This document shows, piece after piece, positions 6,046 through 62,864 of a DNA stretch of 64,000 nt. The position numbers and the translations under genes were made by a program. The stretch is from Thermodesulfobacteriota bacterium (lineage in GTDB: Bacteria; Desulfobacterota; Anaeroferrophillalia; Anaeroferrophillales; Tharpellaceae): assembly GCA_024762675.1 (NCBI GenBank), contig JANTGZ010000001.1:14322-78321 (forward strand). The letters are read 5' to 3'. The notes below the pieces were generated by a model. That model was not told the origin of the DNA and did no database searches. It was given only the letters and a program-made list of their open reading frames with translations. Each line of letters starts with the position of its first letter. Positions within the stretch are counted from its first letter, which is position 1.

Positions 6046-6054
6046 TGAAGTTTG

Positions 6055-6150
6055 AGTGCCTTGCAGGTTATTTTATGCACAAAAAAACAAGATTTAATAT
6101 TCAGAAAATGTTCTGATCGGAAGTTGTTACTTGCAAAATCCTGGCCGGAT
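6055..6150. repeat. degenerate copy (C) of a ~110-bp intergenic repeat family (agtgccttgcagg...aaatgttctgat...acttgc...gccggat)
   Basis: Shares 5' block agtgccttgcagg and internal aaatgttctgat/acttgc with the copies at 8986-9091 and 52494-52613. The central palindrome is lost. Confidence 0.45.
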
Positions 6151-6193
6151 AGTATTGGAGATTCGTAATTTTTTTGTTTCCGGTTATGCTGGG

Positions 6194-7740: not shown

Positions 7741-8937
7741 TCATGCCTTGCGGCGGTAATGGATGTTTAAAAGAATGCTGATTAAAACCAGTGAGGTAAG
7801 CATCGAGGTACCGCCATAACTGAAAAGAGGCAAGGGTATACCTACCACCGGCATAAGTCCTGAGACCATGCCGATATTGATGGTTACCTGCCAGAAAAAG
7901 ATGGCTGCAATACCACTTGCCAAGTAGCTGCCGAAACTGTCTCGTGCTTCCATGGCGATATTTAAAGTTCTGAAAAGAAAGGCAAAATAGAGAGCCAGCA
8001 GGATTATGGTTCCTAAGAATCCCCATTGTTCAGCGTAGGCGGCAAAAATGAAATCAGTATGTTGCTCGGGCAAGAAGTGTAGGGTGTTTTGGGTTCCCTT
8101 GAGAAAGCCTTTGCCGAAGAGTTTGCCGGCACCGATTGCTATCTTTGATTGGGTAATGTGGTAGCCGGAGCCTAAAGGATCATTTTCCGGATTGATAAAA
8201 GTCAAAATTCGCTGACGTTGATAGTCATGCAGGAAATGCCATCCGGTAAAAGCCGCAGTCATGGCGCTGATGGTGATTGTGATGATTGTTCCTCTAGTGA
8301 TACCGGCAATGAAAATCACCACTCCCGATATGAGAATGATAAGCATGGCAGTGCCCAGGTCGGGTTGCTTGAGAATCAGGATGCTGGGCAAGGCGACAAT
8401 GACAGCCGGGGTCAACAACTCTTTCAGGTTGTAGGGTGGTGGCAGACGCCGATTACTGAGGTAGCGAGCCAGAGCAAGGATGACTGTGATTTTGGCAAAC
8501 TCCGAAGGCTGTACATTCATGCCGCCAATTGAGAGCCAGCGAGTCGCTCCCATGTGCTTGCTTCCGGCTAAATCCACTGCCAGCAGTAGTAGTAACCCGA
8601 GTCCGTAGAGCGGATAGGCAGCTTGGTAAAGGTAGTTATAGTGAAAAATGAAAAGTCCACATCCGGCTATTAGAGCTATAGCGAACCAGGTAACTTGCCG
8701 GCGACAGTAAGCTGTTAACCACCCTCCGGTTTCAGGGTTGTAGGTGGCGCTGTAGATTGTGAGAAGTCCCAATGCCACCAGAAGAAAGGCCAGCCCTAAA
8801 GTCAGATAATCAAAATCATGGAGACGGTTGCGATCGAGAGGTTGCTCGGCCAAGTTATTTTTCGATAAGGAGGCGAATGCATCTGAGTTGGCATCGACAA
8901 GGGGTGAGCGGTGCGGTGTTCGTCGTAAAAAGGCCAT
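7741..8937 (-). CDS. rodA: rod shape-determining protein RodA (SEDS family peptidoglycan polymerase)
   Basis: FtsW/RodA/SpoVE family polytopic protein located immediately downstream of mrdA in the mre cluster. Confidence 0.88.
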   Translation of the reverse strand: MAFLRRTPHRSPLVDANSDAFASLSKNNLAEQPLDRNRLHDFDYLTLGLAFLLVALGLLTIYSATYNPETGGWLTAYCRRQVTWFAIALIAGCGLFIFHYNYLYQAAYPLYGLGLLLLLAVDLAGSKHMGATRWLSIGGMNVQPSEFAKITVILALARYLSNRRLPPPYNLKELLTPAVIVALPSILILKQPDLGTAMLIILISGVVIFIAGITRGTIITITISAMTAAFTGWHFLHDYQRQRILTFINPENDPLGSGYHITQSKIAIGAGKLFGKGFLKGTQNTLHFLPEQHTDFIFAAYAEQWGFLGTIILLALYFAFLFRTLNIAMEARDSFGSYLASGIAAIFFWQVTINIGMVSGLMPVVGIPLPLFSYGGTSMLTSLVLISILLNIHYRRKA

Positions 8938-8985
8938 AAATATTTAGTCGCCAGCTGATTGATTTTAATATGGAAAAGCTTTTTA

Positions 8986-9091
8986 GTACCTTGCAGGATA
9001 TTTTCTTGTTTTTTAACAAGGAAATGTTCTGATAAGAGCACTTACTTGCGGGCCGATAAAGCCCGATTTGGTTGCGGGATTGTTCCCCGCA
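8986..9091. repeat. copy A of ~110-bp intergenic palindromic repeat element (REP/MITE-like)
   Basis: Near-identical (~90%) to 52494-52613. Contains the palindrome cttgttttttaacaag and a second hairpin gcgggattgttccccgc. Sits between the mrdA stop and the rodA start. Confidence 0.7.
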
Positions 9092-10936
9092 TTATTTGGT
9101 TTTGTTAAGATAAAATTCAATTGCCTGGCGGGCTATTGGTGCTGCGGTTGAGCCTCCATGGCCGCCATGCTCGACTAGAACCGCTATCGCAATCTCCGGG
9201 TCATTGTAGGGGGCAAAGGCGGCAAACCAGGCATGATCGCGAAAACGCCAGGGGGTATCTTTTGAACCTTTTAGATCTTCAAGACTCTGTTTGACAACCT
9301 GGGCAGTGCCGGTTTTTCCGGCCATCTCACACCCTTTAATAGTTATTCGGGATTTAAAAGCGGTTCCGCGTTTGTCATTTACCACTTGCCAGAGGGCTTT
9401 ACGTATGGCCTGCACATGTTTGTTGCTGATTTCAACCCTGGTGCCAACAGCTCTTCGGGAAGGACTCTGGTTAGTGGAGGAGTTAAGCGGTTTATTTATC
9501 TCTTTAACCAGATGCGGTTTATAGTAGGTTCCTCCATTTGCGAAAACGCTGTACATGGCGGCAACCTGTAAAGGGGTGGTCGTCAGGTAACCCTGGCCTA
9601 TGCAGATAGCAATTGTATCACCTGTATACCATTGATCATGGACATTTTTCAACTTCCATGATGAACTCGGCAAAAGACCACTTTTCTCTTCCGCCAGTTC
9701 TATGCCGCAGGTTCGACCGAGACCGAACTGGGATCCGTAAGCTGCGATCCGGTCTATAGCAATCCGGGTAGCCAGATTGTAATAATATACATCACATGAC
9801 TCCCTGAGGGATCGATACATATCGACTTTTCCGTGTCCATATCGGTTCCAGCAACGAAAACGGGTATTACCCAGCGTCATGGTTCCGCTACAGGAAAAAG
9901 AGGTTAGCGGGGTAATAATCTGATCTGTCAGAGCGACTGCTGCGATCAAAGGTTTGATGGTGGATCCGGGAGGGTAACGGCCTTGAATGGAACGATTTTG
10001 CAGGGGGCGCAGAGGGTCGTTGTTAATCCTTTGCCAATCCTTGGCTGAAATTCGGGTCGCAAAAAGATTGTTTGAAAAGGATGGGGTGCTGACCAGGGCC
10101 AGGATTTCACCGTTTTTAGGATTGATAGCAACCAGACTTCCGACATCTGCGCCCATCAGTTCAAAGGCAAGTTGTTGGAGGTCAATATCGATGGTTAGTT
10201 CAAGGTTCTTTCCGGATTGGGCCGGTTGTATGGTGTAGGCGGAAAGCTCACGACCACGTGCATTAACTTCAACATGGCGCTGGCCGTCCTCTCCGCGTAG
10301 ATATTCCTGGTAACGTGCTTCGATACCGGAGCGCCCAACCAGATCGTCTCGGGCATAACTTTTATAGGCCGGCAGTGCAAGTTCTCGATCATTTACAAAT
10401 CCCAGATAACCGATAATATGAGAACAGACTTCATCATATGGGTATTCTCGTATGGGTTCGGTTTCAATAAGGATGCCGGGCAGTTCAAGCTTGCGGGCTT
10501 CAACTCGGGCCAATTCATTGGGGCTGAGGTTCTTTTTTAAGGTTATTGGCTGATGGCGGGCACAGGTAGGGGTTTTTTGGTAGAGGTTTACGATTGTCCC
10601 GGCTTCAAGGTCTTCAATCTGAGCCGCCAGCAGGTCTGCAACCTCCTCTATTCGTTCAATGTTTTCAGGAATCAGCTGGAGGTTGAAGCCAAGAGAGTTG
10701 TCGGCCAGGATCTCTTTATTACGATCTGTAATAATACCTCTCAGAGCCCGAACCCTTCTGGTCCTGATGCGGTTATCTTGTGACTTTTGATTATAATGTT
10801 CGCCCTGAACTATCTGCAGGTACCAGAGTCGCAAAGTGATACTGGCGACTATAAGTCCCATGACAATCATGATTACACGTCCATTGGCGGCAATCTGTTC
10901 TCGTTTGCTTTTTTTGCTGTTGTCTACATTTGCCAT
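9092..10936 (-). CDS. mrdA: penicillin-binding protein 2 (peptidoglycan D,D-transpeptidase MrdA)
   Basis: 614 aa. N-terminal membrane anchor, PBP dimerisation domain, transpeptidase motifs (STIKP, SxN, KTGT). Positioned between mreD and rodA. Confidence 0.9.
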   Translation of the reverse strand: MANVDNSKKSKREQIAANGRVIMIVMGLIVASITLRLWYLQIVQGEHYNQKSQDNRIRTRRVRALRGIITDRNKEILADNSLGFNLQLIPENIERIEEVADLLAAQIEDLEAGTIVNLYQKTPTCARHQPITLKKNLSPNELARVEARKLELPGILIETEPIREYPYDEVCSHIIGYLGFVNDRELALPAYKSYARDDLVGRSGIEARYQEYLRGEDGQRHVEVNARGRELSAYTIQPAQSGKNLELTIDIDLQQLAFELMGADVGSLVAINPKNGEILALVSTPSFSNNLFATRISAKDWQRINNDPLRPLQNRSIQGRYPPGSTIKPLIAAVALTDQIITPLTSFSCSGTMTLGNTRFRCWNRYGHGKVDMYRSLRESCDVYYYNLATRIAIDRIAAYGSQFGLGRTCGIELAEEKSGLLPSSSWKLKNVHDQWYTGDTIAICIGQGYLTTTPLQVAAMYSVFANGGTYYKPHLVKEINKPLNSSTNQSPSRRAVGTRVEISNKHVQAIRKALWQVVNDKRGTAFKSRITIKGCEMAGKTGTAQVVKQSLEDLKGSKDTPWRFRDHAWFAAFAPYNDPEIAIAVLVEHGGHGGSTAAPIARQAIEFYLNKTK

Positions 10937-12410: not shown

Positions 12411-12467
12411 GTTAGTCTCGCTCTAATGCGGGAATCACTCCCGCAACCCAAAAATTACTGAAAGGCA

Positions 12468-13502
<1,035 letters not shown>

Positions 13503-18102: not shown

Positions 18103-18339
18103 AAATCCTTCGGAAAAATGTTCATAAGATTATAAGTTGCCTTGTTAAGCTCTTAGTAAGTGATTTCCCCCATTGTTACCTCTCTAAAAGTAAAAAAAGC
18201 ATACTTTTTTCATACTTTTGTCGTATTGACTTTCCCATAATAATTTGTTTTCTTAGAAATTATATAGAAAAGCATCAAATCATGTGAAAACCACACCCGT
18301 CGAAAGACGGGGTCGGAAAACCACGGGTCTTGTCACCAG

Positions 18340-18392
18340 CATTTTCAAAGACAGCCGGGTTGCCTCTCTCAAGAGCAACTCGGCTGTCTTTG
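18340..18392 (+). terminator. Rho-independent terminator-like hairpin (agacagccg...cggctgtct followed by a T-run)
   Basis: 9-bp GC-rich stem followed by tttgtttgt. Lies within the structured 5' region upstream of the PEP-CTERM gene. Confidence 0.5.
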
Positions 18393-18454: not shown

Positions 18455-19168
18455 ATGAAAAAGTTAACTTTAATTTATATGATTTTGTTTCTTGTGTTGA
18501 CGCTTGCCGCCGCGACGGCCTCAGCGAATTTGGTGACTATCGGTACGGCAAATTATCTTGGTTCTGACTACAATTTGATCTGGGACGATGACAACAACGG
18601 TAATTCGGTGATCTGGTTGGATTACAGCAATGGCGCAACAAATTGGGTGGCCCAGAACGCTTGGGCCGCAGGACTGAATGCCTCCGGCGTCTTGACATAT
18701 GATATAGATTCAACCTACACCGTTGACTGGGGCACAAACAGCTGGCGACTGCCGGCCACGGTTGACGGTCCGAGAGTTTTTGGCTACGACGGCACCACTA
18801 CAGCCGGTTATAATATCACCAGCTCCGAAATGGGCCATTTATATTATACGGAGCTGGGCAACCTGGGCTATCATGACACAGCGGGTAATACACAACCGGG
18901 TTTTGGTCTAAATAATACAGGAGTTTTTAATAATCTTAGGAATAATGACGGCCGCTACTGGTCCGGCACTGATTTTACAGCCTATTCTTCATCAGCATGG
19001 CACTTTTTTATGTACTACGGCAGTCAAGACACCTATCTTAAAACTAACAACCTCTATGGACTAGCAATTCGCAGCGGCGATGTTTCAGCGGTTCCAGTGC
19101 CTGCGGCTATCTGGCTCTTAGGCTCTGGTCTGATTGCTATTGTTGGAATACGGCGTAAGAAAGGTTGA
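18455..19168 (+). CDS. PEP-CTERM sorting-domain secreted protein
   Basis: Strong RBS GGAGGGGG. N-terminal signal peptide. C-terminal VPVPAAIWLLGSGLIAIVGIRRKKG is a PEP-CTERM motif variant plus TM and basic tail. Confidence 0.8.
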   Translation: MKKLTLIYMILFLVLTLAAATASANLVTIGTANYLGSDYNLIWDDDNNGNSVIWLDYSNGATNWVAQNAWAAGLNASGVLTYDIDSTYTVDWGTNSWRLPATVDGPRVFGYDGTTTAGYNITSSEMGHLYYTELGNLGYHDTAGNTQPGFGLNNTGVFNNLRNNDGRYWSGTDFTAYSSSAWHFFMYYGSQDTYLKTNNLYGLAIRSGDVSAVPVPAAIWLLGSGLIAIVGIRRKKG

Positions 19169-46588: not shown

Positions 46589-49162
46589 TTAGTTTCCAGC
46601 CGGCAAAGCGTCAAGCATTAAATTGTCGCCAGAACCGTTATTCTGAAAACCGACGATTTCATCGGTTGCCGAGTAGGTGACAAAGGTCGCTTCGTTCAGC
46701 TCTTCGCTGTCGGGAAACAGTTCTTCGACCATGTCGACAAATTTTTCACCGGGGGTCAGGGTCATCAGCGTTGACCCAGACCCGACAATACTGCCGTCGT
46801 CTCGTCGTGCCTTAAGTTCTACGTTGACACTGCTGGTGCCGGGGTTGACGAAGGCGATGCCGGTCCAACCTTGATGGTCGATTTTCGGAAAAACTCCTTT
46901 GCTGGCACTTATGCCGACTCCGGTGTAGCCCCCGAGCTGAGCCCCAAAAGAGAATAGCTCAAAGCCGGTGATGCCGCTGTTGGCCTCAATTTTAAGCCAG
47001 TCAGTGCCGCTCGGCAGGCCGAGCTGGGACGCCAGGCCGATGTATTTCTTTACGCCGGCTTCCATCTCAACGTTTATCGCTGTAAGGGCAGTTCCGTCAC
47101 TTTGATAGGGTGTTACCGTGAAATGATCGTTGGCCGCAGTCGGATCGTAAGCTACGATTCCGGTCCACCAGCCGTTGTCACTGGCAATATGAGGGTAGAT
47201 GATGGTTGTCGTGAGCTCATTTTTGAGCAGGATGCCGCTCATCTGTAACGGGGGCGGACCGCTGGTGCCAAAGAGTTCGAGGCCGACAATGCCGTCGGCA
47301 TTTTTGATTTCTGCTGAATGGATATCGGGTTGTGAAATACCGTCGAAAAGTTGGGCAATTGTGAATGCCTGGTGGGTGCCGGCGGCCATGCTGACAGTTT
47401 TACTTGATCCGTTATCAAACTGTATCGTCAGGTTTTTGGTTTCCGTGGTGGTGTTGACCAAAGAGATTCCGGTCCACCAGCCGGGGAGGCTGGCAACATG
47501 AGAAATATAGAGAGACCCACTGTTGACTTCGGCCACTGTTGGTACTGCAACCCGGTAACCGCTGACCTGGTGCGAGAATTTAGTGTAGCCGGTTATGTCG
47601 TCGGCGGTAGTTGCAAAGACGATAAATCCGATTTGGGAGGGGTTGCTCAGTTCAGTGCCGACTGTTATCTGGCGCCGGGCCATTGTGTTTAAATTTATAG
47701 TTATGGGTGTGCCGATCTGATAGCCGGCATCACTGTAACTGATAAGTTGACCGCTGACGGCAGTTTCTCCAGTGTTGATGAGGGCTATTTCAGTCTCCCA
47801 GCCGCTATGGCTGGCGACGTGGGGGAAATAGATGCCGCTGGCAATAGGAGGCTTAGCAGCACTGTCAAAAAGATAGGCCGCCCCAGTCATGTCATCTTGT
47901 TCAGGTACCCCGACAAGGGCGTCACGGTTGCTGCTGATGTCGGCTGAAGCACCAAAAAAATCAAAATTATTAGCGTCGCTCGCCGTCAGCTTCTCCTTGA
48001 TGCCCCAATTGTTGCTGCCACCTTCATTACGTTCCAGTATATAAGCGGCTCCATTTGCTGTTCTTGGACCTAAGGTGTCGTGTCCCTGGGCGCCAACTAT
48101 TGCATAATCTCCGGCAATGCCAATCGATGTGCCGAAGTAATCAAGGGCAATGCCATCATTACTTGTGACTTTTTTAAGTTCTCCCCAGGAATTTGTACCG
48201 CCATTGTCTTTCTGATAGATGAATACAGCGCCGGCGCTCGAACCGTTAGGGTTGTTGTCGTTTGGACTTCCTGCTAAGGCAAATTCTCCGGAGATGGCAA
48301 CCGCAGTAGCAAATTCGTAGTAGGCAGCCCCGTCACTGGCGGCTAAGTCGGCGACTTTGCCCCAGTTATTACTGCCGCCCTGGTTACGGTTGAAAAGGTA
48401 GGCGAGACCGGAGTCGATACCGCTGTCATCAGTGCCAGGAGCTCCAACTACAGCATTGTCACCATCAAGGGCAACTGCGAAGCCGAAATTTTCAGCCCCT
48501 TCAAGGTTGAATAGGGTGGTGACACTGATTTTGCTCTCCTGCCCCCAGTTGTCATTGCCGCCTTGGTTGCGGTAAAAAATATAGGCGGCCCCAGCATTGG
48601 TGGTGTTGTCATCATCGCCCGGCATGCCAACAATAATGCGGTCGCCAGAGATTCCTACAGCGGTGCCGAAACCATCATCAGCATTGCCCTGGTCGGCTAC
48701 AAGTTTTTTAACTTGACTCCAGCTATCGCCCTGGCCTCGGGCAAATACAAAAGCTGTTCCCGAGGCGGAGCCGTTGTCGTCGTCTCCAGGAGCGCCTATG
48801 ACTATAAAATCGCCGGAAATAGCAACTGTCCAACCGAAAGCATCTCCGGATGCCCCATCACTAGCAGTGATTTTGCTTAACTGCCCCCAGTTATTACTGC
48901 CCCCCTGGTCGCGGGCAAAGATAAAAGCGGCTCCAGCCCCGGAGCCCTTATCATCATCTCCGGGTACGCCGACCACAGCATAGTCACCGGCAATAGCCAC
49001 CGCGTGACCAAAACTGTCGTCATCGGAGAGTCCGGTTGCGGCCAATTTGTGCTCAGTGGCAGAGACAGTGAGGGATGTGCAGACAAGGATTGTTGTTGCA
49101 ATAAACATCATTATTGCCAGGCGATAAAAGTTCTTCATGGTTTTACTTCCTTCAGAGTTCAT
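46589..49162 (-). CDS. large secreted FG-GAP/integrin-alpha-like repeat protein with a C-terminal array of unassigned ~100-aa repeats
   Basis: Signal peptide. ~8 repeats of (GD..VVG.PGDDD.GS.AGAAFIF.R.QGG.NNWGQ). Then 4 repeats containing [Y/F]PH[IV]AS..GWWTGI. Confidence 0.7.
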   Translation of the reverse strand: MNSEGSKTMKNFYRLAIMMFIATTILVCTSLTVSATEHKLAATGLSDDDSFGHAVAIAGDYAVVGVPGDDDKGSGAGAAFIFARDQGGSNNWGQLSKITASDGASGDAFGWTVAISGDFIVIGAPGDDDNGSASGTAFVFARGQGDSWSQVKKLVADQGNADDGFGTAVGISGDRIIVGMPGDDDNTTNAGAAYIFYRNQGGNDNWGQESKISVTTLFNLEGAENFGFAVALDGDNAVVGAPGTDDSGIDSGLAYLFNRNQGGSNNWGKVADLAASDGAAYYEFATAVAISGEFALAGSPNDNNPNGSSAGAVFIYQKDNGGTNSWGELKKVTSNDGIALDYFGTSIGIAGDYAIVGAQGHDTLGPRTANGAAYILERNEGGSNNWGIKEKLTASDANNFDFFGASADISSNRDALVGVPEQDDMTGAAYLFDSAAKPPIASGIYFPHVASHSGWETEIALINTGETAVSGQLISYSDAGYQIGTPITINLNTMARRQITVGTELSNPSQIGFIVFATTADDITGYTKFSHQVSGYRVAVPTVAEVNSGSLYISHVASLPGWWTGISLVNTTTETKNLTIQFDNGSSKTVSMAAGTHQAFTIAQLFDGISQPDIHSAEIKNADGIVGLELFGTSGPPPLQMSGILLKNELTTTIIYPHIASDNGWWTGIVAYDPTAANDHFTVTPYQSDGTALTAINVEMEAGVKKYIGLASQLGLPSGTDWLKIEANSGITGFELFSFGAQLGGYTGVGISASKGVFPKIDHQGWTGIAFVNPGTSSVNVELKARRDDGSIVGSGSTLMTLTPGEKFVDMVEELFPDSEELNEATFVTYSATDEIVGFQNNGSGDNLMLDALPAGN

Positions 49163-51349: not shown

Positions 51350-52126
51350 TTACAGATTCAGATTGTGTGCGGTGCTGTGGCACTCTCCGCAAGTCGGGAA
51401 TTTCTTCATGATGCCAGGTGAATGCGGGACGCCATGGCAATCCTGGCAGGCCGGAACCATTTTGTGCTTCTCTTTGTGGCAAGCGGCGCAGGATAGAGCA
51501 TGGTGTTTAGTCGTACTGGCAGTCAGCTGGCTTAAAGCTTCATCGTGACATGAGCCGCAGCCCTCCGATGGCGTGGCGTCGTTGTAGACCACGACCAGGG
51601 GTTTATGGGCCTGATGACACTGGGCACAATCAGCCTGAACCATGGTTTCGCCGTGGGGTTCGTGACAGCTTACGCAGAGTGGTATCTGAGCATGTTCCTG
51701 GTGACAGGCGGTACATGCCATGGTTGTATGGAAGCTTTTGTTTTCCTGGAGTAGGGTTCCCTGTTCCTGGTGGCAGGTCAGGCAGGCCCCGGTGATATCC
51801 TTGGCTAGCTGCAGAACCAGGGGCATATGAGGGTTGTTGTGGCAGCTTAGGCAGTTTTCCAGTTCATAATGGGATTTGCCACTGTGACAGCTGTCGCAGG
51901 TGGGGATGTTTTCGCGAACAGTGGGGGGGTGGCCTTCGTGGCACTCCATACAGGTCACTGCTGTTTTATGGGCTCCGCCCTGGGCTTCAATGTCGGCCGG
52001 AGGCTGGGTGTGGCACTTGATACAGTCATCATTGCTGAGTTCGGCTGCCAAGCTTAAAGATGTGAAAGTCAGGATCAGCCCAGCGCTGATTATAAGTGCC
52101 ACCAGGATTGTCGTCAGCCTTTTCAT
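51350..52126 (-). CDS. dodecaheme c-type cytochrome (c7-type polymer-like), periplasmic
   Basis: Signal peptide plus 12 CxxCH motifs counted in 258 aa, many as CxxCHxxH. Confidence 0.9.
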   Translation of the reverse strand: MKRLTTILVALIISAGLILTFTSLSLAAELSNDDCIKCHTQPPADIEAQGGAHKTAVTCMECHEGHPPTVRENIPTCDSCHSGKSHYELENCLSCHNNPHMPLVLQLAKDITGACLTCHQEQGTLLQENKSFHTTMACTACHQEHAQIPLCVSCHEPHGETMVQADCAQCHQAHKPLVVVYNDATPSEGCGSCHDEALSQLTASTTKHHALSCAACHKEKHKMVPACQDCHGVPHSPGIMKKFPTCGECHSTAHNLNL

Positions 52127-52493
52127 GTTTTTTTCTCCCCATTTTTAACAGTTTAAAATAATTGTTTTTATAAGAAATCCGCACTATTAAAAAATATCCC
52201 CAAACTCAACAGCAATGATTGTACCTTGATGATTCCATGTTTAAATTTACTCTGGAGATCCTTTTTCGAAAGTTTTATGTTTCAGTTGCAGCTATGCTTT
52301 TGCCCTCAATCTTATTTTTATAGACTCTCTTATTGGGCTTGGCATTCAAAACGATATGATGTATTAAATTACGCCACCACTCTATGCCATATGACCCATT
52401 CGGGTTAAATGCCGCAGTGCGTAGATGTTTGAGGACTATTATTTTATTGGCTTACGTGGCTTTCGCATAAATATTGCTAGGCTATAACGGTTT

Positions 52494-52613
52494 AGTGCCT
52501 TACAGAACATTTTCTTGTTTTTTTTAACAAGAAAATGTTCTTATAAGAGCACTTATTTGCGGGCCGATAGGGCTTGGTTGGATTGCGGGATTGTTCCCCG
52601 CATTAGATATTTC
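52494..52613. repeat. copy B of ~110-bp intergenic palindromic repeat element (REP/MITE-like)
   Basis: Contains the perfect 15-bp inverted repeat gaacattttcttgtt/aacaagaaaatgttc and the gcgggattgttccccgc hairpin. About 90% identical to 8986-9091. Confidence 0.7.
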
Positions 52614-52703
52614 ACATGAGTATGTTACGGTTGATTTTTGTTTCCCCTCTCTGCTACATTAATATATAGTTAAACAGTCAACTTTTCTGGAGGTAAGACG
52701 GGA

Positions 52704-54116
52704 ATGTCAAGTAAACGGGTTCTGGTTGTCGATGATGAACACCTGATACGCTGGTCTTTGGTCAGGGCCCTTGATGAAGCGGGATATCAAGTTGAGGCGG
52801 CAGAGACCGGAGCCGAAGCTCGCACTAAATATCGCGATTTCAGGCCTCATGCGGTGCTTCTTGATATATGTTTGCCTGATGCTGTTGGGACTGATCTCTT
52901 GAAGGAGTTCAAGGCCGATGACAAAGATTTAGTTGTCATTATGATCACAGCCCATTCCGATGCCGACTCTGCCGTCAGCGCTCTCAAGATTGGGGCTACT
53001 GATTATGTCGGTAAGCCTTTTGACCTCGAAGATGTCCTGCATTCAATTGAGCAGGCTCTTGAAAAACAGCGGCTACAGGATGAAAATGCCTATTTTCGTC
53101 GAGTCCTTAAAGATAAAATAGAACGTGACAACCTGGTTGGTAACTGTCCAAAAATGATCGAGGTCTATAAGCTTATCAAGATTGCGGCCGATGCCGATGC
53201 CAAAACTGTTCTGATTACCGGCGCCAGCGGTACCGGTAAAGAGTTGGTTGCCCGGGGAGTCCACATGCACAGCTCTCGTTCGAAAGAGCCTTTTATAGAT
53301 GTCAATTGTGCCGCCATTCCTGAATCACTGTTGGAAAATGAACTTTTTGGTCACGAACGAGGAGCCTATACAGATGCCTCCCAGAAGCAGAAAGGTATTT
53401 TTGAGATGGCCGGGGGAGGCACTGTTTTTCTTGATGAGATTGGAGATATGCCTATCGGTATGCAGGCCAAAGTTCTGAAAGTGATTGAAAATCGGAGTTA
53501 TCGGCGCCTCGGTGGCGATAACGATGTCCTTTCCGATGCCCGGATTGTGGCTGCGACCAATCAGGATCTAACAAGCATGGTCAAGGAAGGGAAATTTCGC
53601 GCAGATCTTTTTTACCGCTTGAATGTGATGCCCATCAAACTGCCTTCTCTGGTCGAGCGGAAAATGGATATTCCTCAACTGGCGGCCTATTTCATCAACC
53701 GTTTTAATGAAGAGTATGGTCGTAATATTGATGGGGTTGATGCTCAAACTATGCATCACCTTATGTCATATGACTGGCCCGGTAATGTTCGTGAGCTCCG
53801 TAATGCCATTGAACGGGCGATGATGCTCGAGCGTGGCAGCAGTCTCACTTCACAACATTTCAGCTCGGAAATTATTAATGCCGGCAAGTCTGCAGAGGGT
53901 AGCAGCGCTGATGAAGCTACGGCTGAAGATGATTGCTTCTCCTTTGGACAGGTAAAGCTGCCCAAAGATGGAATCTCTCTCGAAGAAGTTGAAAAACAGC
54001 TCATCCAGATGGCCTTGAAGCGTTGGAATGGTAATCAGACCAAGGCTGCCGAATGCCTGCGCATGAGTCGAGATACTTTGCGCTACCGGATGAAGAAATT
54101 CGGTCTTCCGAAATAG
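52704..54116 (+). CDS. sigma-54-dependent response regulator (NtrC family: receiver + AAA+ + HTH)
   Basis: Receiver (VLVVDDEHLIRW...D) plus sigma-54 activation domain (GASGTGKE; GAYTDA) plus C-terminal HTH. Confidence 0.9.
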   Translation: MSSKRVLVVDDEHLIRWSLVRALDEAGYQVEAAETGAEARTKYRDFRPHAVLLDICLPDAVGTDLLKEFKADDKDLVVIMITAHSDADSAVSALKIGATDYVGKPFDLEDVLHSIEQALEKQRLQDENAYFRRVLKDKIERDNLVGNCPKMIEVYKLIKIAADADAKTVLITGASGTGKELVARGVHMHSSRSKEPFIDVNCAAIPESLLENELFGHERGAYTDASQKQKGIFEMAGGGTVFLDEIGDMPIGMQAKVLKVIENRSYRRLGGDNDVLSDARIVAATNQDLTSMVKEGKFRADLFYRLNVMPIKLPSLVERKMDIPQLAAYFINRFNEEYGRNIDGVDAQTMHHLMSYDWPGNVRELRNAIERAMMLERGSSLTSQHFSSEIINAGKSAEGSSADEATAEDDCFSFGQVKLPKDGISLEEVEKQLIQMALKRWNGNQTKAAECLRMSRDTLRYRMKKFGLPK

Positions 54117-54214
54117 CTTTTCAGTTTATTGTTTTAATAGAAGCACCACAGAGAACACAGAGAAAAACTTAATTTTGCCTTTTTGGTTCCGGCCTTGCCG
54201 GATTGGGGATAGGT

Positions 54215-55573
54215 ATGAAAAATCATAAAATTATCTTTCATTTTGCGAGGCTGATCAGTTTTTTTGTTATTGTGATTTCGCCTCTTTTTTTTACGCAATC
54301 GATTTTGGCCGCCTGTCTGACCAGCTCCTGTCATCAGCAATTAAAAACTTTTGCCCAACTTCACGAGCCTTTGGTTGAAGGAGAGTGCCAGGCCTGTCAC
54401 GAGCGTGTGGTTGAAGAGCATCCCTTAAAAAAAGGGTCAAGTTTCAAATTGGTCGCTGATGGGGCAGCCTTGTGTCTTGAATGTCATGACGCTTTTGATC
54501 CAGCCTCCGGTAAGCTTCATGATGCTGTGGCTGAGGGTGAATGTTTGGCCTGTCATAACCCCCATGGCAGTAACGGTGACGGTCTGTTGCAGGCAGGTGG
54601 CGATCTTAAAGTGATCTGTTTCGAGTGCCATGACGGAACTCCTTTTGCACAGGAATTCGTCCATGGTCCGGCTGCAGCCGGGGTTTGTCTCGAGTGTCAT
54701 GATCCTCACCAATCAAATAATGAGGCGCTCCTACTGCATGATTCCAAATCTTTATGTCTACGTTGTCACGCTGACCTGGCTACAGGCCTGGAAGATGCAA
54801 CCGTCATTCATGCACCTCTAAATGATGAAGCTTGTAACTCCTGCCATGAAGTCCACGCTAGCCCTTTTGCTCATCTTCTTAAAGGGGATGGCCCCAAATT
54901 CTGTTTTTCCTGCCATAAAGAGCTGGCTGACAAATATAATAAGGCCGGTACTAAACACACTGCTCTCTATAAGGATGGTCGTTGTGGTAATTGTCACGCC
55001 CCCCATTTTTCAAGTTACGCAGCCTTGCTGCCGGAACGTGAAAGTGATGTCTGTCTGCGCTGTCATGGCAAGGATGATTTCCATCGTTCGAAGGCCTTGA
55101 AAAATATCCGTACCGAACTGACCGAAAAAGAGCATCTGCACGGCCCCTTGAACGACGGAGACTGCTCAGCTTGTCATGATCCGCACGGTTCCGACTTCTA
55201 TCGGCTCCTGGTTAATGACTATCCTGAAAGTTTTTACGCTCCCTATCGTAAAGGGACTTACGCTTTCTGCCTTAGCTGCCATGAAGAGAATCTTCTGCGT
55301 TTTCCGGAGACCTCCATCTATACCCTTTTTCGGGATGGCAAACGCAACCTGCACTACACCCATGTTGCTGACCCTCGCAAAGGCCGCAGTTGTCGGGCCT
55401 GTCATCAGGCTCATGCCAGTAACGGCCCCAAGTTGGTAAACGAGGATGGGGCTCCTTTTGGGAACTGGAAAATCCCTCTGCGACTGGTCCTGACCGAGAC
55501 CGGCGGCAGTTGTTCTCCCGGTTGTCATCGTCGCATGTCTTACGATCGTAAAAATCCTGTAATAAAAAAATAG
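54215..55573 (+). CDS. periplasmic multiheme c-type cytochrome (13 CxxCH + CxxxCH + Cx4CH)
   Basis: Start at ATG 54215 (the track's upstream TTG is unlikely). Signal peptide. 13 canonical CxxCH motifs. One CSPGCH near the C-terminus and one CLTSSCH near the N-terminus. Confidence 0.88.
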   Translation: MKNHKIIFHFARLISFFVIVISPLFFTQSILAACLTSSCHQQLKTFAQLHEPLVEGECQACHERVVEEHPLKKGSSFKLVADGAALCLECHDAFDPASGKLHDAVAEGECLACHNPHGSNGDGLLQAGGDLKVICFECHDGTPFAQEFVHGPAAAGVCLECHDPHQSNNEALLLHDSKSLCLRCHADLATGLEDATVIHAPLNDEACNSCHEVHASPFAHLLKGDGPKFCFSCHKELADKYNKAGTKHTALYKDGRCGNCHAPHFSSYAALLPERESDVCLRCHGKDDFHRSKALKNIRTELTEKEHLHGPLNDGDCSACHDPHGSDFYRLLVNDYPESFYAPYRKGTYAFCLSCHEENLLRFPETSIYTLFRDGKRNLHYTHVADPRKGRSCRACHQAHASNGPKLVNEDGAPFGNWKIPLRLVLTETGGSCSPGCHRRMSYDRKNPVIKK

Positions 55574-55900
55574 TATTAAACAGTTCAACGTTCAAAGTTA
55601 AAAGTTCAGGGTTAAGGTCAAAAGCAAGTTTAAGGGCAAAAGCAGTGCAAAAGTCAAACTCGGAGCTGCTTTGGCCTTTTTTTCTCATCGAGAAAACTTA
55701 AACATTGAACTTTGAACTGCCTGAGCGATATCCCCCTTGTGCCTGACCGTTATGGTGGGGTAAGTGCCCCACTTGGGTGTCGACCAGTTCTCAGGGGCTT
55801 TTTGCCGGCTTTTTATGTTTCTCAAGCGGTCTCTTTAAACTGTTGAATATATTTGCTTTTTTAAAGTTGTAGTGCTCTTTTTCACTGACTTTATGAATTT

Positions 55901-55916
55901 TGGCACAATATATGCT
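55901..55916 (+). promoter_or_regulatory. candidate sigma-54 (-24/-12) promoter TGGCAC-aatat-ATGCT
   Basis: Perfect -24 TGGCAC with correct spacing to a GC-containing -12. Lies ~160 nt upstream of the tetraheme cytochrome start. Palindrome GTGGGGtaagtGCCCCAC at ~55758-55775 upstream could be an activator site. Confidence 0.45.
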
Positions 55917-56078
55917 CTCTGTCATTATAGATTTGCTTAGATCAGCATTTTAAGTTGTTTTAGGTCTTTTGGGGAAGATCTTGATTTTTGAAATGTTGCG
56001 ATAAAAAGACTGCACGTACAACTGGAAAAGAGAGTGGGAGCTTAACAACAAATAAATATGCCTGAGAGGAATATAATT

Positions 56079-56759
56079 ATGAAGAGATATATGATAATTT
56101 TCTTGTGTGTTGCCGCCCTGGCTTTTACTGCCACGCAGGTTTTAGCTGGTGCCGCACCCGGAACCGGGATTGTCGGTTCTAAACATGATATGAATGTTGT
56201 TTCTAATCCGGATAGCCAGAATCGTGTCTGTGCTTTCTGCCATACCCCGCATCACGCCCTTGATGATGCTTCGGCCGATTATCTGCCTTTGTGGTCGCAT
56301 GAACTTACCAGTCTAACCTACACTGACTATAGCTCAATCACATTTGATGGTGCCGGATTCCCGGCTGGTGATACCTTGACCGGTCCTTCCCGTCTCTGTA
56401 TGAGCTGTCATGATGGTGCGGTCGCGGTTGACCAGCATTATGGCGGCATTGGTACTGACGTCCGTTCCGGTGACAGCTGGGGTGAAATCGGCGTCGGCGC
56501 CGGTGGTGACTTGAGCAATGACCATCCGATCGGTTTTGATTACACCGCGATTGCCGGTGTGGTTGATGATGAGATTCGTTTGGCTACAACTCCGGTTGCT
56601 AATCCCAGTGTAAACACGATTACCGAACTGTTGTGGGATGACCAGTGGATGACTTGTGCCTCCTGTCATGATGTTCATAACACTGATGCCAACGAAGACT
56701 ATTTTCTCTATGGTCCGCAGGCTAACTCCGATTTCTGCCTGATCTGTCACGACAAATAA
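56079..56759 (+). CDS. tetraheme c-type cytochrome, secreted
   Basis: Start at ATG 56079 (MKRYMIIFLCVAALAFTATQVLA signal). Four CxxCH motifs (CAFCH, CMSCH, CASCH, CLICH). Confidence 0.85.
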   Translation: MKRYMIIFLCVAALAFTATQVLAGAAPGTGIVGSKHDMNVVSNPDSQNRVCAFCHTPHHALDDASADYLPLWSHELTSLTYTDYSSITFDGAGFPAGDTLTGPSRLCMSCHDGAVAVDQHYGGIGTDVRSGDSWGEIGVGAGGDLSNDHPIGFDYTAIAGVVDDEIRLATTPVANPSVNTITELLWDDQWMTCASCHDVHNTDANEDYFLYGPQANSDFCLICHDK

Positions 56760-56790
56760 TAACCTTTTAAATTAGTCCAGTCACGATAAA

Positions 56791-56824
56791 GGCTGCCGGT
56801 AGTATCTGCCGGCAGCCTTTTTTA
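56791..56824 (+). terminator. Rho-independent terminator (ggctgccgg-loop-ccggcagcc followed by a T-run)
   Basis: Perfect 9-bp GC-rich stem followed by T6, directly after the tetraheme cytochrome stop. Confidence 0.8.
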
Positions 56825-56878
56825 GGTTGCGTAAAAACTTGAGTAAATGGTATAGTTATTAAAATAACAAAACCGATT

Positions 56879-58003
56879 ATGGAGTTGTCGATGCCTGTAG
56901 ATGTTGTCGTAAACCGTCCTGGTTCGATTAGATTGGCCTTTTTGCTGGTTCTTATCTTCTTCCTCTTGTTGCTTTTTTCTGCCTGTACCGGCCCTGAGGT
57001 GGTTCGTCCTCAAGGTTCGGTTTTTTTCCCGCCGGTTCCCAACCCCCCCCGGGTTCAATACCTGACCCGGATCTCCAGTTCAACCGATGTTGATGGTAAA
57101 AAACTGGGCGGGCTTTCAATTATTGCCGTCGGAGATAGCCGGGCTGAAAAACCCAAACCTATCATTAAGCCCTATGGAATTACCGTGCGTGATGGTAAAC
57201 TATATGTCTGTGATACTTCACCCGGGCGTCTGATTGTCATCGATCCGGCCCGTAAGACTTTTGAATTTTTGAAAGGTAACTACAGTTTCGGTAAACTGAA
57301 AAAACCGATTAATTCAGCCTTAGACAGTGAAGGCAACCTCTATGTTGCCGATACCATGCGCAAAGAGGTGCTGGTTTATGGTCCGAGTGGCAGCTTTCTG
57401 CGCGCCTTTGGTAAAGGTCTCGAGATGAAACCGGTCGATGTTGCTATCGATGGTGACTATCTTTATGTTCTTGATCTCAAGAATCATGATATCAAAATAC
57501 TTGATCGGAAAAGTGGAAAGCTATTGGAAACTATTGGTAATGATTCTGATAATAAACACCTTTTGTCGATGCCCATCAGCCTTGATACCGATCCCAAAGG
57601 CAGCATCTATGTCTCCAATATGACTTCCGGTAAAATTATCAACTTGGATCGTGATGGTCACCTGCTGGGTGAATTCGGCAAACTTGGTGATGGTTTTGGC
57701 CAGTTCGGTCGGCCCAAAGGTTTGACGGTGGATGACCAGGGGCGTATCTACGTCGTTGATGCGGCCCATCAGAATGTTCAGATTTTTAATAAAGATGGCC
57801 GGCTGTTGATGTTTTTCGGTGATCCCGGGCTTCCTTTTGGCTCCCTCAATTTGCCGGCTGGGATTGCAGTTACCTCTGAAGGGATTGATCTTTTTAAAGA
57901 ATATATCGATCCCGCTTTTCAAGTTGAGCAGCTGATTTTCGTTACCAGTCAGTTCGGTCCGGCCAAGATCTCGGTTTATGGACTCGGAGAACTGAAAAAC
58001 TGA
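56879..58003 (+). CDS. NHL-repeat (six-bladed beta-propeller) lipoprotein
   Basis: Signal plus lipobox (LLFSAC). Repeated NHL motifs (GNLYVADT; GSIYVSNM; GRIYVVDAAHQNVQIFNKDGRLL). Confidence 0.8.
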   Translation: MELSMPVDVVVNRPGSIRLAFLLVLIFFLLLLFSACTGPEVVRPQGSVFFPPVPNPPRVQYLTRISSSTDVDGKKLGGLSIIAVGDSRAEKPKPIIKPYGITVRDGKLYVCDTSPGRLIVIDPARKTFEFLKGNYSFGKLKKPINSALDSEGNLYVADTMRKEVLVYGPSGSFLRAFGKGLEMKPVDVAIDGDYLYVLDLKNHDIKILDRKSGKLLETIGNDSDNKHLLSMPISLDTDPKGSIYVSNMTSGKIINLDRDGHLLGEFGKLGDGFGQFGRPKGLTVDDQGRIYVVDAAHQNVQIFNKDGRLLMFFGDPGLPFGSLNLPAGIAVTSEGIDLFKEYIDPAFQVEQLIFVTSQFGPAKISVYGLGELKN

Positions 58004-58040
58004 TTACTGCGGAATATTTTACAGTGATTTTTTAATAAAT

Positions 58041-58093
58041 ACCACAGAGAGCACAGAGGATGGTTTTCTCTGAGACCTCTGTGCTCTCTGTGG
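58041..58093 (+). terminator. perfect 19-bp inverted repeat hairpin (accacagagagcacagagg / cctctgtgctctctgtggt), terminator/REP-like
   Basis: Read from the sequence. Located directly after the NHL gene. The half-site motif accacagaga(g/a)cacagag recurs at ~54143. Confidence 0.6.
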
Positions 58094-58123
58094 TGAAAAA
58101 TATGTGGTCTAAAAACCATTTTT

Positions 58124-58729
58124 ATGGTCAATTTATTTAAAAATTGTCGAATTATTTTGTTGATCGGCTCTCTGGCCGTGGTTTTCTTTCTTGCCGGTTG
58201 TGATGCCACTGCCCGTTATAAGGTCTTAACGACGATATTTGACGGGGTGCCAAGCCCGATTCCGCCGGAAAAAGTCCTTGAGGAGTATTATGCTAAACGG
58301 CTTCAGGCCGAACGCGATGCAGCTGCCGGCAAAGTTTCAGCCGACGCTTCGACCGGGCTTTTGCATGTTTCCAAACATCTTCCCTATACGCAAAAAAAAT
58401 GTAAGGATTGTCACGATTTCAGCACCGCAGTCGGCCTTATCCGGCCGCCTAGAGAGCTCTGTTTTGTATGTCATCGCAAGTTTCGTGACCATATTCGTGA
58501 ACCCTTTGTTCATGGTCCGGTTGCAGTTGGTGACTGTTCTGCCTGTCATCTGCCGCACTCTTCTGAAAACACCTCTCTGCTGGAGCTTGATCGGAATAAA
58601 ATCTGCGATAAATGTCATCATGAAGAGCGCCTTGCGGTCGAGATGCATGATAAAATTATGACCCACGGTATGGCCTGTGTTGATTGTCATGACGCCCATT
58701 ACGGCCAAGCCCGCTACTTTCTCAAATGA
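58124..58729 (+). CDS. pentaheme c-type cytochrome lipoprotein
   Basis: Signal plus lipobox (FFLAGC). Five CxxCH motifs (CKDCH, CFVCH, CSACH, CDKCH, CVDCH). Confidence 0.85.
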   Translation: MVNLFKNCRIILLIGSLAVVFFLAGCDATARYKVLTTIFDGVPSPIPPEKVLEEYYAKRLQAERDAAAGKVSADASTGLLHVSKHLPYTQKKCKDCHDFSTAVGLIRPPRELCFVCHRKFRDHIREPFVHGPVAVGDCSACHLPHSSENTSLLELDRNKICDKCHHEERLAVEMHDKIMTHGMACVDCHDAHYGQARYFLK

Positions 58730-58752
58730 TTATCTATTCAGGAAGAGTGTAG

Positions 58753-60735
58753 ATGCGGCCGACCCTGGTTATTTTATTCTGCCTGTTAACGGCTCAACTC
58801 ATGCTGGCTGGTCAATCGCAGGCTCGGGCTCTTTTTATGATCCGGGATTTTCGTAACTGGCTTGAACTTGAATATGAGTATGAAGGTTCCAGTTCCGATA
58901 GTGCCGGCAGCAATCAGGATCTGACGGAACAGCAGTTATGGGAGACCTACCATTTTGAGATGGCTTACGCTATCTATAGCCCACGTTGGCTTAACGGCCA
59001 TTTTGAGGTCGATCTTGGCTTTCTGCAGGAGTGGTATGACGGCACCAGTGACGGTTCCGGCTCCGATAACGACTTTGTTCTCGGTTACCGTCTGGATGGT
59101 ATTATCTTGGATCGTAAATCTTTTCCCACAACGTTTTTTGCCGAGTCGGAGAGTACTCGGGCCGACCGCCGTTTCGCCCGTAATTACGATCTGCAAACTG
59201 AAAACTATGGTATCGCTACAACCTACAAAAATCGCTTTGTACCGGTTCACTTAAGCTATTTTTCCAACCGCAGTGAAACTGACGGGCTCGAACTTGATCG
59301 CGAGATTACAACCGAGACCTTTTCGGCAGATCTCTCCCACCAGACTGATGATGGCTTCAGCCTTAGTGAAATAAACTATTTCTATACCGACGACAAAACT
59401 TCATTTTCCGGTTCTCAGCCCTCAGATAAAAATAATGTCGAGGAGTATTTTCTCCGTAATTCACTGACCTGGGGAGAGCATCTCAAGCGCAGCTACTTTA
59501 TCTCCAGCTATCGTTATCGTGAGGAAGAGGGCAGTAATCCGATCAAATCTACGGACTGGTTTGAAACTATTGACTGGCGACCGGGACTTGCCCTGCGCCT
59601 GGGACTCGAATATCAGTTCAGCAAAGATGAAACTGAAACTTTAAATCGTAAAGATAACCGCTATCGGGGTTGGATCGAGCATCATCTTTATGAGAGCCTT
59701 ACAACCTCCGCCCGGGCCAGTAGCCGTAACCTCGAATTTGACGGCGGTAGCGAAGATGAGAACGGTTTTGTTTTAAGTCTTTCCTACCGTAAAAAATTAC
59801 CGGCTGATTCCTATTTTACCATGGGCTATTCCTACGGATATGAAGAGACCGAGCGGGACTTGGATGATAACCTGTTCTTCGTCGTCAATGAGGAGATGAT
59901 TGTCGATCTCTTTGAGAGAAACCTCTTAAATAATCTTGATGCTGTAGCTGAAACCATTGTTGTTTACAATGAGGATCGACTCATTACCTATGTTGAGGGA
60001 GCCGATTACACAATTGAACAGGTTGGTCGCGAAACCGAGATTATTATCCCCTCCGGCAGCCTTATCAATGAAGGAGACAAACTTTCGCTCGACTATGAAT
60101 ACCTGGTTAACCCTGACATCGATTTTTCCACTACCGTCCATCAGGCCAGTACAACTTTAACCCTTTTTGACCGTCATTACCGAATCTATGCCAACTATGT
60201 CAATTCAAAACAGAAATTACTCTCTTCGGCCGATGATCCGGATCTTTATGACAGTCTCTACAATCTTGAGACCTGGACTGTCGGGGCTGAAGGCGAGTGG
60301 AACTATGTGACTTGCGGCCTCGAGTACACAGATTACAACTCAACCACCGATATTCGCCAATATCTCGAAGGTTTCATTAATTATAGACGCTATTTCAGGC
60401 GTAATTTTATCTTTTTTTACCTGCGTGATCGCATAACCAGCCATGATGATTTGGATAATGGTACTGACAGTAATGGTGGCAGTGAAAATGTTCTGACCAC
60501 CGGTTTTCAGTATAAGCGAAAATTCCCGCTTGGGGCGATCGGTGAAGTCAACCTCGATTATTTAAACCAGAGCGGTCGTAGTAACGACCGTCAGGAACTC
60601 GATCTCGAAATAGCCTATCAGCTTCGGGTTGGGAAGCTTGTCTTTGAAGCCAGCATTGAAGAGGAGTGGGCCTGGACCGATAATCGCGATGAACGTAATG
60701 ATAAGGTTATGTTCAGAATCCGCCGCTACTTTTGA
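58753..60735 (+). CDS. putative large outer-membrane beta-barrel protein (porin-like; candidate conduit component)
   Basis: Cleavable signal (AGQSQA). 660 aa rich in Y/D/N/G/T with amphipathic alternating stretches (GFVLSLSYR; YFTMGYSYGYE; LEIAYQLRV). C-terminal ...RIRRYF ends in Phe, the OMP signature. No Cys pairs or enzymatic motifs. Confidence 0.5.
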   Translation: MRPTLVILFCLLTAQLMLAGQSQARALFMIRDFRNWLELEYEYEGSSSDSAGSNQDLTEQQLWETYHFEMAYAIYSPRWLNGHFEVDLGFLQEWYDGTSDGSGSDNDFVLGYRLDGIILDRKSFPTTFFAESESTRADRRFARNYDLQTENYGIATTYKNRFVPVHLSYFSNRSETDGLELDREITTETFSADLSHQTDDGFSLSEINYFYTDDKTSFSGSQPSDKNNVEEYFLRNSLTWGEHLKRSYFISSYRYREEEGSNPIKSTDWFETIDWRPGLALRLGLEYQFSKDETETLNRKDNRYRGWIEHHLYESLTTSARASSRNLEFDGGSEDENGFVLSLSYRKKLPADSYFTMGYSYGYEETERDLDDNLFFVVNEEMIVDLFERNLLNNLDAVAETIVVYNEDRLITYVEGADYTIEQVGRETEIIIPSGSLINEGDKLSLDYEYLVNPDIDFSTTVHQASTTLTLFDRHYRIYANYVNSKQKLLSSADDPDLYDSLYNLETWTVGAEGEWNYVTCGLEYTDYNSTTDIRQYLEGFINYRRYFRRNFIFFYLRDRITSHDDLDNGTDSNGGSENVLTTGFQYKRKFPLGAIGEVNLDYLNQSGRSNDRQELDLEIAYQLRVGKLVFEASIEEEWAWTDNRDERNDKVMFRIRRYF

Positions 60736-61301: not shown

Positions 61302-61386
61302 TTGATACAGGGTTAACCTTCACTCTGAGTGGTCAAAATTAAAAAATTAAAATAAACGTGGTCCGAACTTTGCTCTATTGTGATCT

Positions 61387-62807: not shown

Positions 62808-62864
62808 CCTTAAACTCCAAACCCCGAACTTTAAACTTTGAACTGTCCCAAATAGAGTAATGTT

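Follow-up and report, generated by a model that had tools for sequence, protein, structure and literature searches.

A three-hairpin, TTAG-flanked repeat family, probably transposable, in the mrdA–rodA junction and at other intergenic sites of an uncultured Desulfobacterota/Thermodesulfobacteriota clade

In the 64,000-nt stretch of DNA analysed here (hereafter the window), the genes mrdA and rodA are separated by a gap of 154 nt, most of which is filled by a foldable repeat. What kind of sequence is this, and does it serve the operon in which it lies or has it simply landed there? A preliminary description of the same DNA had counted three copies of a palindromic repeat of about 110 bp, and had likened it to MITE or REP elements as well as to small-RNA or terminator modules. 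We therefore begin with the copies themselves, whose extents were taken from a covariance model built on 58 copies of the family and run unfiltered over the whole window. The model found the four copies listed below and nothing beyond them.

8983–9095, plus strand: copy 1, full length, 113 nt (covariance model 103 bits, E 1e-17)
8983–8986, plus strand: TTAG of copy 1
8985–9042, plus strand: long hairpin of copy 1
9049–9065, plus strand: hairpin 2 of copy 1
9073–9091, plus strand: hairpin 3 of copy 1
9092–9095, plus strand: terminal TTAT of copy 1
52492–52606, plus strand: copy 2, full length, 115 nt (covariance model 106 bits)
~6053–6172, plus strand: copy 3, old and decayed, of the subfamily with inner loop CTGCACAAAAAAACAAGA (covariance model 13 bits, E ~1; nhmmer E 6e-4)
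12423–12471, minus strand: copy 4, a short derivative of 49 nt between mreB and mreC (covariance model 26.6 bits, E 0.003)
9092–10936, minus strand: mrdA, penicillin-binding protein 2, 614 aa (Pfam PBP_dimer and Transpeptidase in the syntenic loci)
7741–8937, minus strand: rodA, 398 aa (FTSW_RODA_SPOVE and the same length in the syntenic loci L008–L010)

The near-identical pair of the preliminary description, placed there at 8986–9091 and 52494–52613, is thus present, at the extents given above, and all three of the copies that it counted exist; a fourth, on the minus strand at 12423–12471, had been overlooked. A repeat finder paired 8998–9094 with 52509–52605 and 8982–9014 with 52491–52523. 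In addition, the 3' hairpin motif GCGGGANTGNTYCCCGCATTA occurs three times in the window, where 0.03 matches are expected, and the 5' motif TAGTGCCTTNCAG, with at most one mismatch, four times against an expected 0.25. Two other families returned by the repeat finder, D1 and D3, correspond to the seven FG-GAP repeats of an 857-aa protein (46589–49162, minus strand) and have nothing to do with the element.

Copies 1 and 2 are 85% identical and mutually closest among the 58 aligned copies, and a hairpin-3 variant, GCGGGATTGTTCCCCGC, is common to the two and found in no other of the 58. The terminal TTA of copy 1 (9092–9094) is at the same time the mrdA stop codon, TAA on the minus strand. Copy 2 carries TTAG at both ends (52492–52495 and 52603–52606) and lies in a divergent spacer, between a small multihaem cytochrome gene (51350–52126, minus strand) and a sigma-54 response regulator gene (52704–54116, plus strand). 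The degenerate copy reported at 6055–6150 is real, but its score is weak and the match is clear in the 5' part alone: the nhmmer hit covers the 5' ~70 nt, only the 5' ~75 nt are recognisable and the rest has decayed. This 5' part matches the longer-inner-loop subfamily in an alignment with L013, L063 and L077. Copy 3 sits in the spacer between radA and a glycosyl hydrolase gene, which is partly conserved in the relative L008, and is therefore an old relic. Finally, copy 4 consists of the 5' end TTAGTGCCTTTCAG fused to the 3' hairpin GGGTTGCGGGAGTGATTCCCGCATTAG, and of nothing else; it looks like what a long copy of the L002 type would leave after a deletion between the direct repeats GCCTTRCAG. 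Its first TAG (12470–12468) serves as the stop codon of mreB, and the start of mreC follows 12 nt past its end.

The surroundings of these copies hold other features of interest. The region from 51350 to 63905 is a dense multihaem cytochrome cluster (Paired_CXXCH_1, Cytochrome c7/c3 and an MtrC/MtrF-like domain) with NHL-repeat beta-propeller genes, and it adjoins the sigma-54 response regulator gene, located 97 nt downstream of copy 2, and a PAS histidine kinase gene. Elsewhere in the window, a c-di-GMP-I-GGC riboswitch aptamer (18281–18368, plus strand; 59.4 bits, just over the gathering score of 59) precedes a 237-aa open reading frame with no Pfam match (18455–19168), followed by type II secretion pseudopilin-like and Laminin_G_3 genes. 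This riboswitch class is associated with Geobacter-type extracellular electron transfer genes.

The preliminary description left room for the case that only these copies exist, which is not so. By means of an invariant 22-nt motif from the centre of the element, at least 100 loci were collected from JGI metagenomes, nearly all of them true copies carrying the whole element; conservation at the centre of these copies is therefore given by construction. Contig ends are a frequent position of these loci, and single samples contributed dozens of them. They yielded 58 distinct canonical full-length copies. An nhmmer search of 0.46 Mb gave 166 hits at E <= 1e-3, partial matches and reverse-strand matches to the hairpin being counted among them; 76 of the hits are full length. 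Three further copies were found in metagenome-assembled genomes (MAGs) of a one-genome-per-species collection (L002, L004, which is partial, and L007); in this case the pattern was the window's own 3'-hairpin variant, which is too narrow, and three of the seven loci returned were real. No match to the element was obtained in viral contigs, plasmids and phage collections, and a text search of the literature did not find the sequence strings of the element.

As for the hosts, the relatives of MrdA with 53–91% identity are labelled 'Deltaproteobacteria bacterium' or 'Desulfarculaceae bacterium', after which identity drops to ~44%; one relative, labelled 'Thermodesulfobacteriota bacterium', is the same MAG as L007. 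The element family resides in the chromosomes of an uncultured, sulfate-reducer-like Desulfobacterota/Thermodesulfobacteriota clade.

The unit of this family is 113–114 nt long (consensus TTAGTGCCTTACAGGTTATTTTCTGGTTTGAAAAACAAGAAAATGTTCTGATAAGAGCACTTATTTGCGGGCCGAAAAGCCCCGTTTGGGTTGCGGGATTTGTTCCCGCATTAG) and non-coding, and the absence of any open reading frame agrees with what had been said of it before. It folds into a long hairpin of ~25 bp with the base AGTGC/GCACT, a short and variable second hairpin, and a third formed by GCGGGA/TCCCGC. The strong hairpins of the preliminary description are thus borne out, but they are three in a row and not one palindrome. Specifically, copy 1 folds at -43.4 kcal/mol on the plus strand (z -4.8) and at -33.9 kcal/mol on the minus strand, and copy 2 at -49.2 kcal/mol (z -6.9); in general, folding energies are 4–7 standard deviations below those of shuffled sequence (z -4.3 to -6.9). 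Across the 58 distinct canonical full-length copies, 92.7% of the pair cells hold standard pairs, compared with 41–58% when the partners are slid. Double changes number 17 against 8.5 +/- 2.4 in shuffles, about a twofold excess, and are concentrated in the inner stem, where an A-T to G-C exchange occurred nine times at one pair. This covariation is modest, and palindromes can also covary by template switching rather than by selection.

RNAalifold favours a long-range GCGGG...CCCGC pairing around hairpins 2 and 3. The short natural variants GCGGGCAACGCCCGCGTTAG, found at four loci (L036, L048, L049 and L098), correspond to this pairing with the middle deleted. The sporadic mismatches were considered as a signal of the active strand, but at 65 G-T against 46 A-C they are not decisive, and most G-T pairs are fixed in the consensus.

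The ends of the element are sharp, with TTAGTGCCTTACAG at the 5' end and a hairpin of the form GGGTTGCGGG-loop-CCCGCATTAG at the 3' end. The two ends differ in how strictly the flanking tetranucleotide is kept. Of 56 copies, 55 have TTAG at the 5' end, and in 53 the base just before it is A or T. The 3' end has TTAG in 40 of 58 only and otherwise TTAA, TTTG, TTGG, TCAG, TTTA or TTAT, variants that turn up in different subfamilies. The two tetranucleotides consequently differ within 18 of the 58 copies, although the 5' one is almost invariant, and this asymmetry argues against a 4-bp target-site duplication of TTAG; the preliminary description had proposed to look for target-site duplications in general. 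The asymmetry suggests instead that only one TTAG is part of the element, the second being the target. A 2-bp duplication (TT) may still be compatible with the ends, no pair of filled and empty sites compared being more than 95% identical in DNA. Where copies stand head to tail they share a single TTAG (L016, L067, L080, L081, L084, L093 and L108). The element lands at TTAG-type sites. Terminal inverted repeats were not found: the 5' end TTAGTGCCTTACAGGTTA and the reverse-complemented 3' end CTAATGCGGGAACAAATC match at 7 of 18 positions, and the ends have just TA-TGC in common.

Orthologous sites were compared between the window and its relatives. The mre/mrd region is syntenic in L008, L009 and L010, with a RodA of 398 aa in all three. 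The mrdA–rodA gap of 154 nt, which had been measured correctly, is 60, 46 and 53 nt long in these relatives, MrdA being 91, 88 and 83% identical, respectively. The covariance model found no copy anywhere over 59 kb of the three loci, and the mreB–mreC copy (copy 4) is likewise absent from them. Copy 2 is exactly missing in L114 and L115, where the adjacent sigma-54 regulator is 87% identical and the flanks align on both sides; in L115 the empty site reads ...CGTACCTTAG joined to CAGGTAAC..., with a single TTAG at the junction. Furthermore, the pheS–pheT junction is filled in L025 and empty in L087. On these comparisons copy 1 is a recent insertion on the mrdA stop codon, specific to the lineage of the window.

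A separate observation was made next to the empty copy-2 site: a relative without copy 2 carries a decayed copy of its own (L114/L113, 3573–3688; 24 bits, E 0.004), ~300 nt away in the same intergenic region.

Short-read assemblies of the same strain (Logan contigs, SRR19843167) break within the element: contig L111 ends (9135–9208) inside the long hairpin of copy 1, and contig L112 starts (1–95) inside copy 2. Besides this strain, SRR19843167 contains a relative in which the adjacent sigma-54 regulator is 87% identical. Such breaks are explained by the behaviour of assemblers at a dispersed repeat. Together with the occurrence at no fewer than 100 loci, the presence/absence at two sites and the tandem and nested copies, they strongly uphold the mobile-repeat part of the earlier comparison with MITE and REP elements. 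The specific classes do not hold, since a classical MITE has terminal inverted repeats and a canonical REP has a GT[AG]G tag, and the present unit has 113 nt and three hairpins.

The same data bear on whether the element could nevertheless be a classical MITE whose parent was an insertion sequence of the DDE-transposase kind, for example an IS5-like one (YTAR targets) or an IS630-like one (TA targets), and which moved by cut-and-paste with a short duplication of TTAG, TTA or TA. The TTAG at both ends of most copies and the single TTAG at the insertion point of the empty L115 allele would fit this origin, as would the size, the absent coding capacity, the multi-copy intergenic spread and the presence/absence polymorphism. 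It is unlikely, in our view, given ends without terminal inverted repeats; the 18 discordant pairs of flanking tetranucleotides are not what a duplication formed on insertion would be expected to give, the 3' variants are spread among the subfamilies, and no related insertion sequence was seen in the collected loci.

How does the element sit with respect to genes? The mrdA–rodA operon is on the minus strand, so that copy 1 is antisense to the family consensus orientation. In gene orientation the junction reads AAA TAA / TGCGGGG ... GGTAC TAA / AAAGC; the element thus starts right after, or includes, the mrdA stop codon, and the C-terminus of MrdA is kept. The rodA start lies 45 nt beyond the other end of the copy. 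Over the family as a whole, orientation relative to neighbouring genes is even (upstream 27 same and 32 opposite, downstream 24 and 27, in 73 non-redundant full-length copies). Sixteen of these 73 lie exactly on the stop codon of a neighbour, 11 of them with a co-oriented upstream gene ending in the 5' TAG and 5 with a converging gene ending in the 3' TTA (TAA). When open reading frames of 100 codons or more are considered, 15 of 88 cases stop at the 5' TAG, and the control frames give 2 and 4. Since both ends are inward stop codons, TAG on the left and, on the other strand, TAA on the right, the element can occupy a stop codon without any change to the protein.

An active preference for stop codons was considered, and is not needed. 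In the window, about 7 of the 55 TTAG/CTAA sites outside coding sequence touch stop codons, which is of the same order as 16 of 73 elements; a TTAG target and the removal of gene-disrupting insertions are therefore enough to account for the overlap.

A position between the genes of an operon raises the possibility of a cis-acting RNA module (a terminator, attenuator, mRNA stabiliser or RNase III site) that selection would retain in junctions such as mrdA–rodA and mreB–mreC to tune the expression of the neighbouring genes. The very stable hairpins (z -4.3 to -6.9), a long stem of ~25 bp that would in principle suffice for RNase III, the many copies that begin at a stop codon and the presence of two copies inside one cell-shape operon are in keeping with such a role, and the available text of PMC3733652 provides a precedent in REP elements that affect mRNA stability. 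Nevertheless, the same junctions lack the element in three relatives, the orientation is even, and copies also occur in divergent promoter regions, in tandem and nested, and Rfam has no matching family. In addition, a search for terminators (a G+C-rich hairpin with a U-tract) found no site on the minus, or operon, strand at copy 1, and at copy 2 neither strand has one; the terminator-like hairpins at copy 1 are weak, are on the plus strand only, antisense to the operon, and owe their T-rich tail to flanking sequence. We consequently judge a selected RNA module to be highly improbable, and the terminator reading of the preliminary description finds no backing in the orientation of the copies either.

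The other function proposed in the preliminary description, a small RNA, would make the element a multi-copy gene family with its own promoter. The plus strand does fold better than the minus strand (-43.4 against -33.9 kcal/mol), and weak terminator-like hairpins are present at copy 1. Yet no promoter-like site was found in or beside copy 2, and near copy 1 there are just weak promoter-like matches (9 of 12), located on the operon strand at the 3' end of the element. What resembles a terminator tail at copy 1 is flanking sequence and has no counterpart at copy 2, and the excess of G-T pairs is mostly fixed in the consensus. A search of Rfam 15 at gathering and permissive thresholds gave no relevant match, the best being a generic microRNA hairpin model, which scored 30.9 bits where the threshold is 47, so that no family was at or above its gathering threshold. 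Moreover, the copy numbers and the tandem and nested arrangement are those of mobile DNA. A small-RNA gene family is, on this evidence, next to incredible.

For the operon itself, the insertion means that the minus-strand transcript gains three hairpins (-33.9 kcal/mol) without a U-tract. Two copies in opposite orientations within one essential operon, together with this lack of a U-tract, lead us to expect read-through: the element in the mrdA–rodA transcript should be read through, with at most altered processing or stability. Any such effect, which is possible, would be a by-product; we see no sign of operon regulation.

The interior of the element is exchangeable. L004, for example, retains both ends but has 150 nt in place of the hairpin-1 tip.

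Several related repeats were seen among the collected loci. Eight loci (L022, L035, L042, L044, L052, L086, L090 and L109) have copies with a paralogous hairpin of 63 nt (AAGTGTTTCACAGGTTCTTTGCC...CTGATGAAAAAACTTATGCAGAGCT) nested within hairpin 1, between its AAAATGTT and CTGATAAGAGCAC. A second repeat family of ~270 nt has the same termini, starting with TTAGTRCCTTAC and ending in a hairpin of the TTTGGGTTGCGGG-loop-CCCGCCTTGG type, and a different, G+C-rich interior. Often found directly after a copy of the 113-nt family, it occurs at L014 (1042–~1310), L015 (465–~700), L037 (from 1456), L060, L109, L044 and L105. A further repeated segment of ~150–230 nt (L094, L101, L038 and L021), 93–99% identical between contigs of one metagenome, adjoins truncated copies of the element; no open reading frame or transposase is evident in it.

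All together, these data support the view that the repeat belongs to a small, non-autonomous transposable element family, probably moved by a single-strand transposase (HUH/Y1, REP- or IS200/IS605-like), a reading to which we assign a probability of roughly 0.78. The features that point to an HUH/Y1 enzyme are the hairpin ends without inverted repeats, the tetranucleotide at the hairpin foot and insertion at a fixed tetranucleotide. In the available text of PMC6006769 and PMC3733652, hairpin ends lacking inverted repeats and an adjacent fixed tetranucleotide are hallmarks of elements handled by such enzymes. We picture a transposase acting in trans, putatively an HUH/Y1 enzyme of the REP-RAYT or IS200/IS605 type, that would recognise the hairpin ends on single-stranded DNA, the hairpins being its recognition features. 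It would integrate the element beside a TTAG/CTAA tetranucleotide without a true target duplication, and the interior, especially the tip of hairpin 1, would be free to vary.

Searches for the enzyme were made in the material at hand. No transposase domain was detected by Pfam among 40 proteins of the window, and none in the syntenic gene tables of L008–L010. A tblastn search for Y1 proteins in 0.59 Mb of collected DNA, with sequences of IS608 TnpA, IS200 TnpA and E. coli RAYT as queries, gave noise, with a best E of 0.05 (L094) and no matching open reading frame. Within the same 0.59 Mb of loci, no gene was enclosed by two element ends separated by over 200 nt, as would be the case in an autonomous parent. 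In view of the lack of a Y1 match, it is the anatomy of the ends that argues for the single-strand mechanism.

More tentatively, uncultured Desulfobacterota may have an undescribed HUH/Y1 (RAYT-like) system of which the element is the substrate, distinguished by a TTAG tag in place of GTAG, the three-hairpin unit, the exchangeable interiors and a 'safe landing' on stop codons; we hold this to be possible rather than probable. If true, the inward stops at both ends would let the element colonise harmlessly the stop codons of essential operons, those at mreB–mreC, mrdA–rodA and pheS–pheT, a distinct strategy for a single-strand transposon.

The family has some practical bearing. For annotation, it accounts for broken contigs and for the variability of intergenic spacers in the MAGs of this clade, and awareness of it should prevent its hairpins from being called terminators or small RNAs. 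For the study of mobile DNA, it offers a natural series of full, deleted, tandem, nested and cargo-swapped copies with common termini, and its combination of missing inverted repeats with a TTAG target overlapping stop codons could lead to a new hairpin-recognising transposase. With regard to cell shape, the mre/mrd operon is shown to accommodate, between its genes, stable hairpins that amount to more than 100 nt.

It remains to place the family among known systems. Classical bacterial MITEs such as Correia/NEMIS, RUP and ERIC/RU-1 have terminal inverted repeats and fixed target duplications (PMC3184786). Our element resembles them in being ~100–150 nt long, intergenic, foldable and strain-polymorphic, sometimes located in operons and sometimes supplying stop codons, but it has no terminal inverted repeats, and for this reason it is not a classical MITE; a fixed 4-bp duplication of TTAG is also contradicted by its ends. 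The BOX elements of Streptococcus pneumoniae are modular in the same way, with conserved outer and variable or repeated inner modules, and to our knowledge their mobility is also unexplained; they have no sequence relation to the present family and a different host range.

A closer likeness in several respects is to the REP/REPIN-RAYT systems, which are also extragenic, high-copy and non-coding, with a conserved tetranucleotide at the hairpin foot and no terminal inverted repeats, and which form lineage-specific subfamilies that persist vertically, often just downstream of genes. Canonical REPs, as the accessible text of PMC6006769 and PMC3733652 describes them, are 20–40 bp long, bear a 5' GT[AG]G tag and are usually arranged as inverted doublets. 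With 113 nt, three hairpins, a TTAG (CTAA on the other strand) in place of GT[AG]G, and adjacent copies that stand head to tail sharing TTAG instead of forming the inverted doublets of a REPIN, our element fails this definition; nor was a RAYT gene found in the window or in the collected loci.

The elements of the IS200/IS605 group and their miniature derivatives (PATEs) likewise have hairpins at both ends and no inverted repeats. The pattern at the ends of our element fits their insertion beside a specific tetra- or pentanucleotide without real duplication, with a similar short sequence at the far end. In IS608 the hairpins are subterminal, and a guide sequence lies between the cleavage site and the hairpin; here, by contrast, the hairpins abut the ends, and no TnpA or TnpB partner was seen. 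In conclusion, this previously undescribed family adds to a known kind of bacterial mobile repeat, and its unusual details are the TTAG tag, the stop codons at both ends and the modular interiors.
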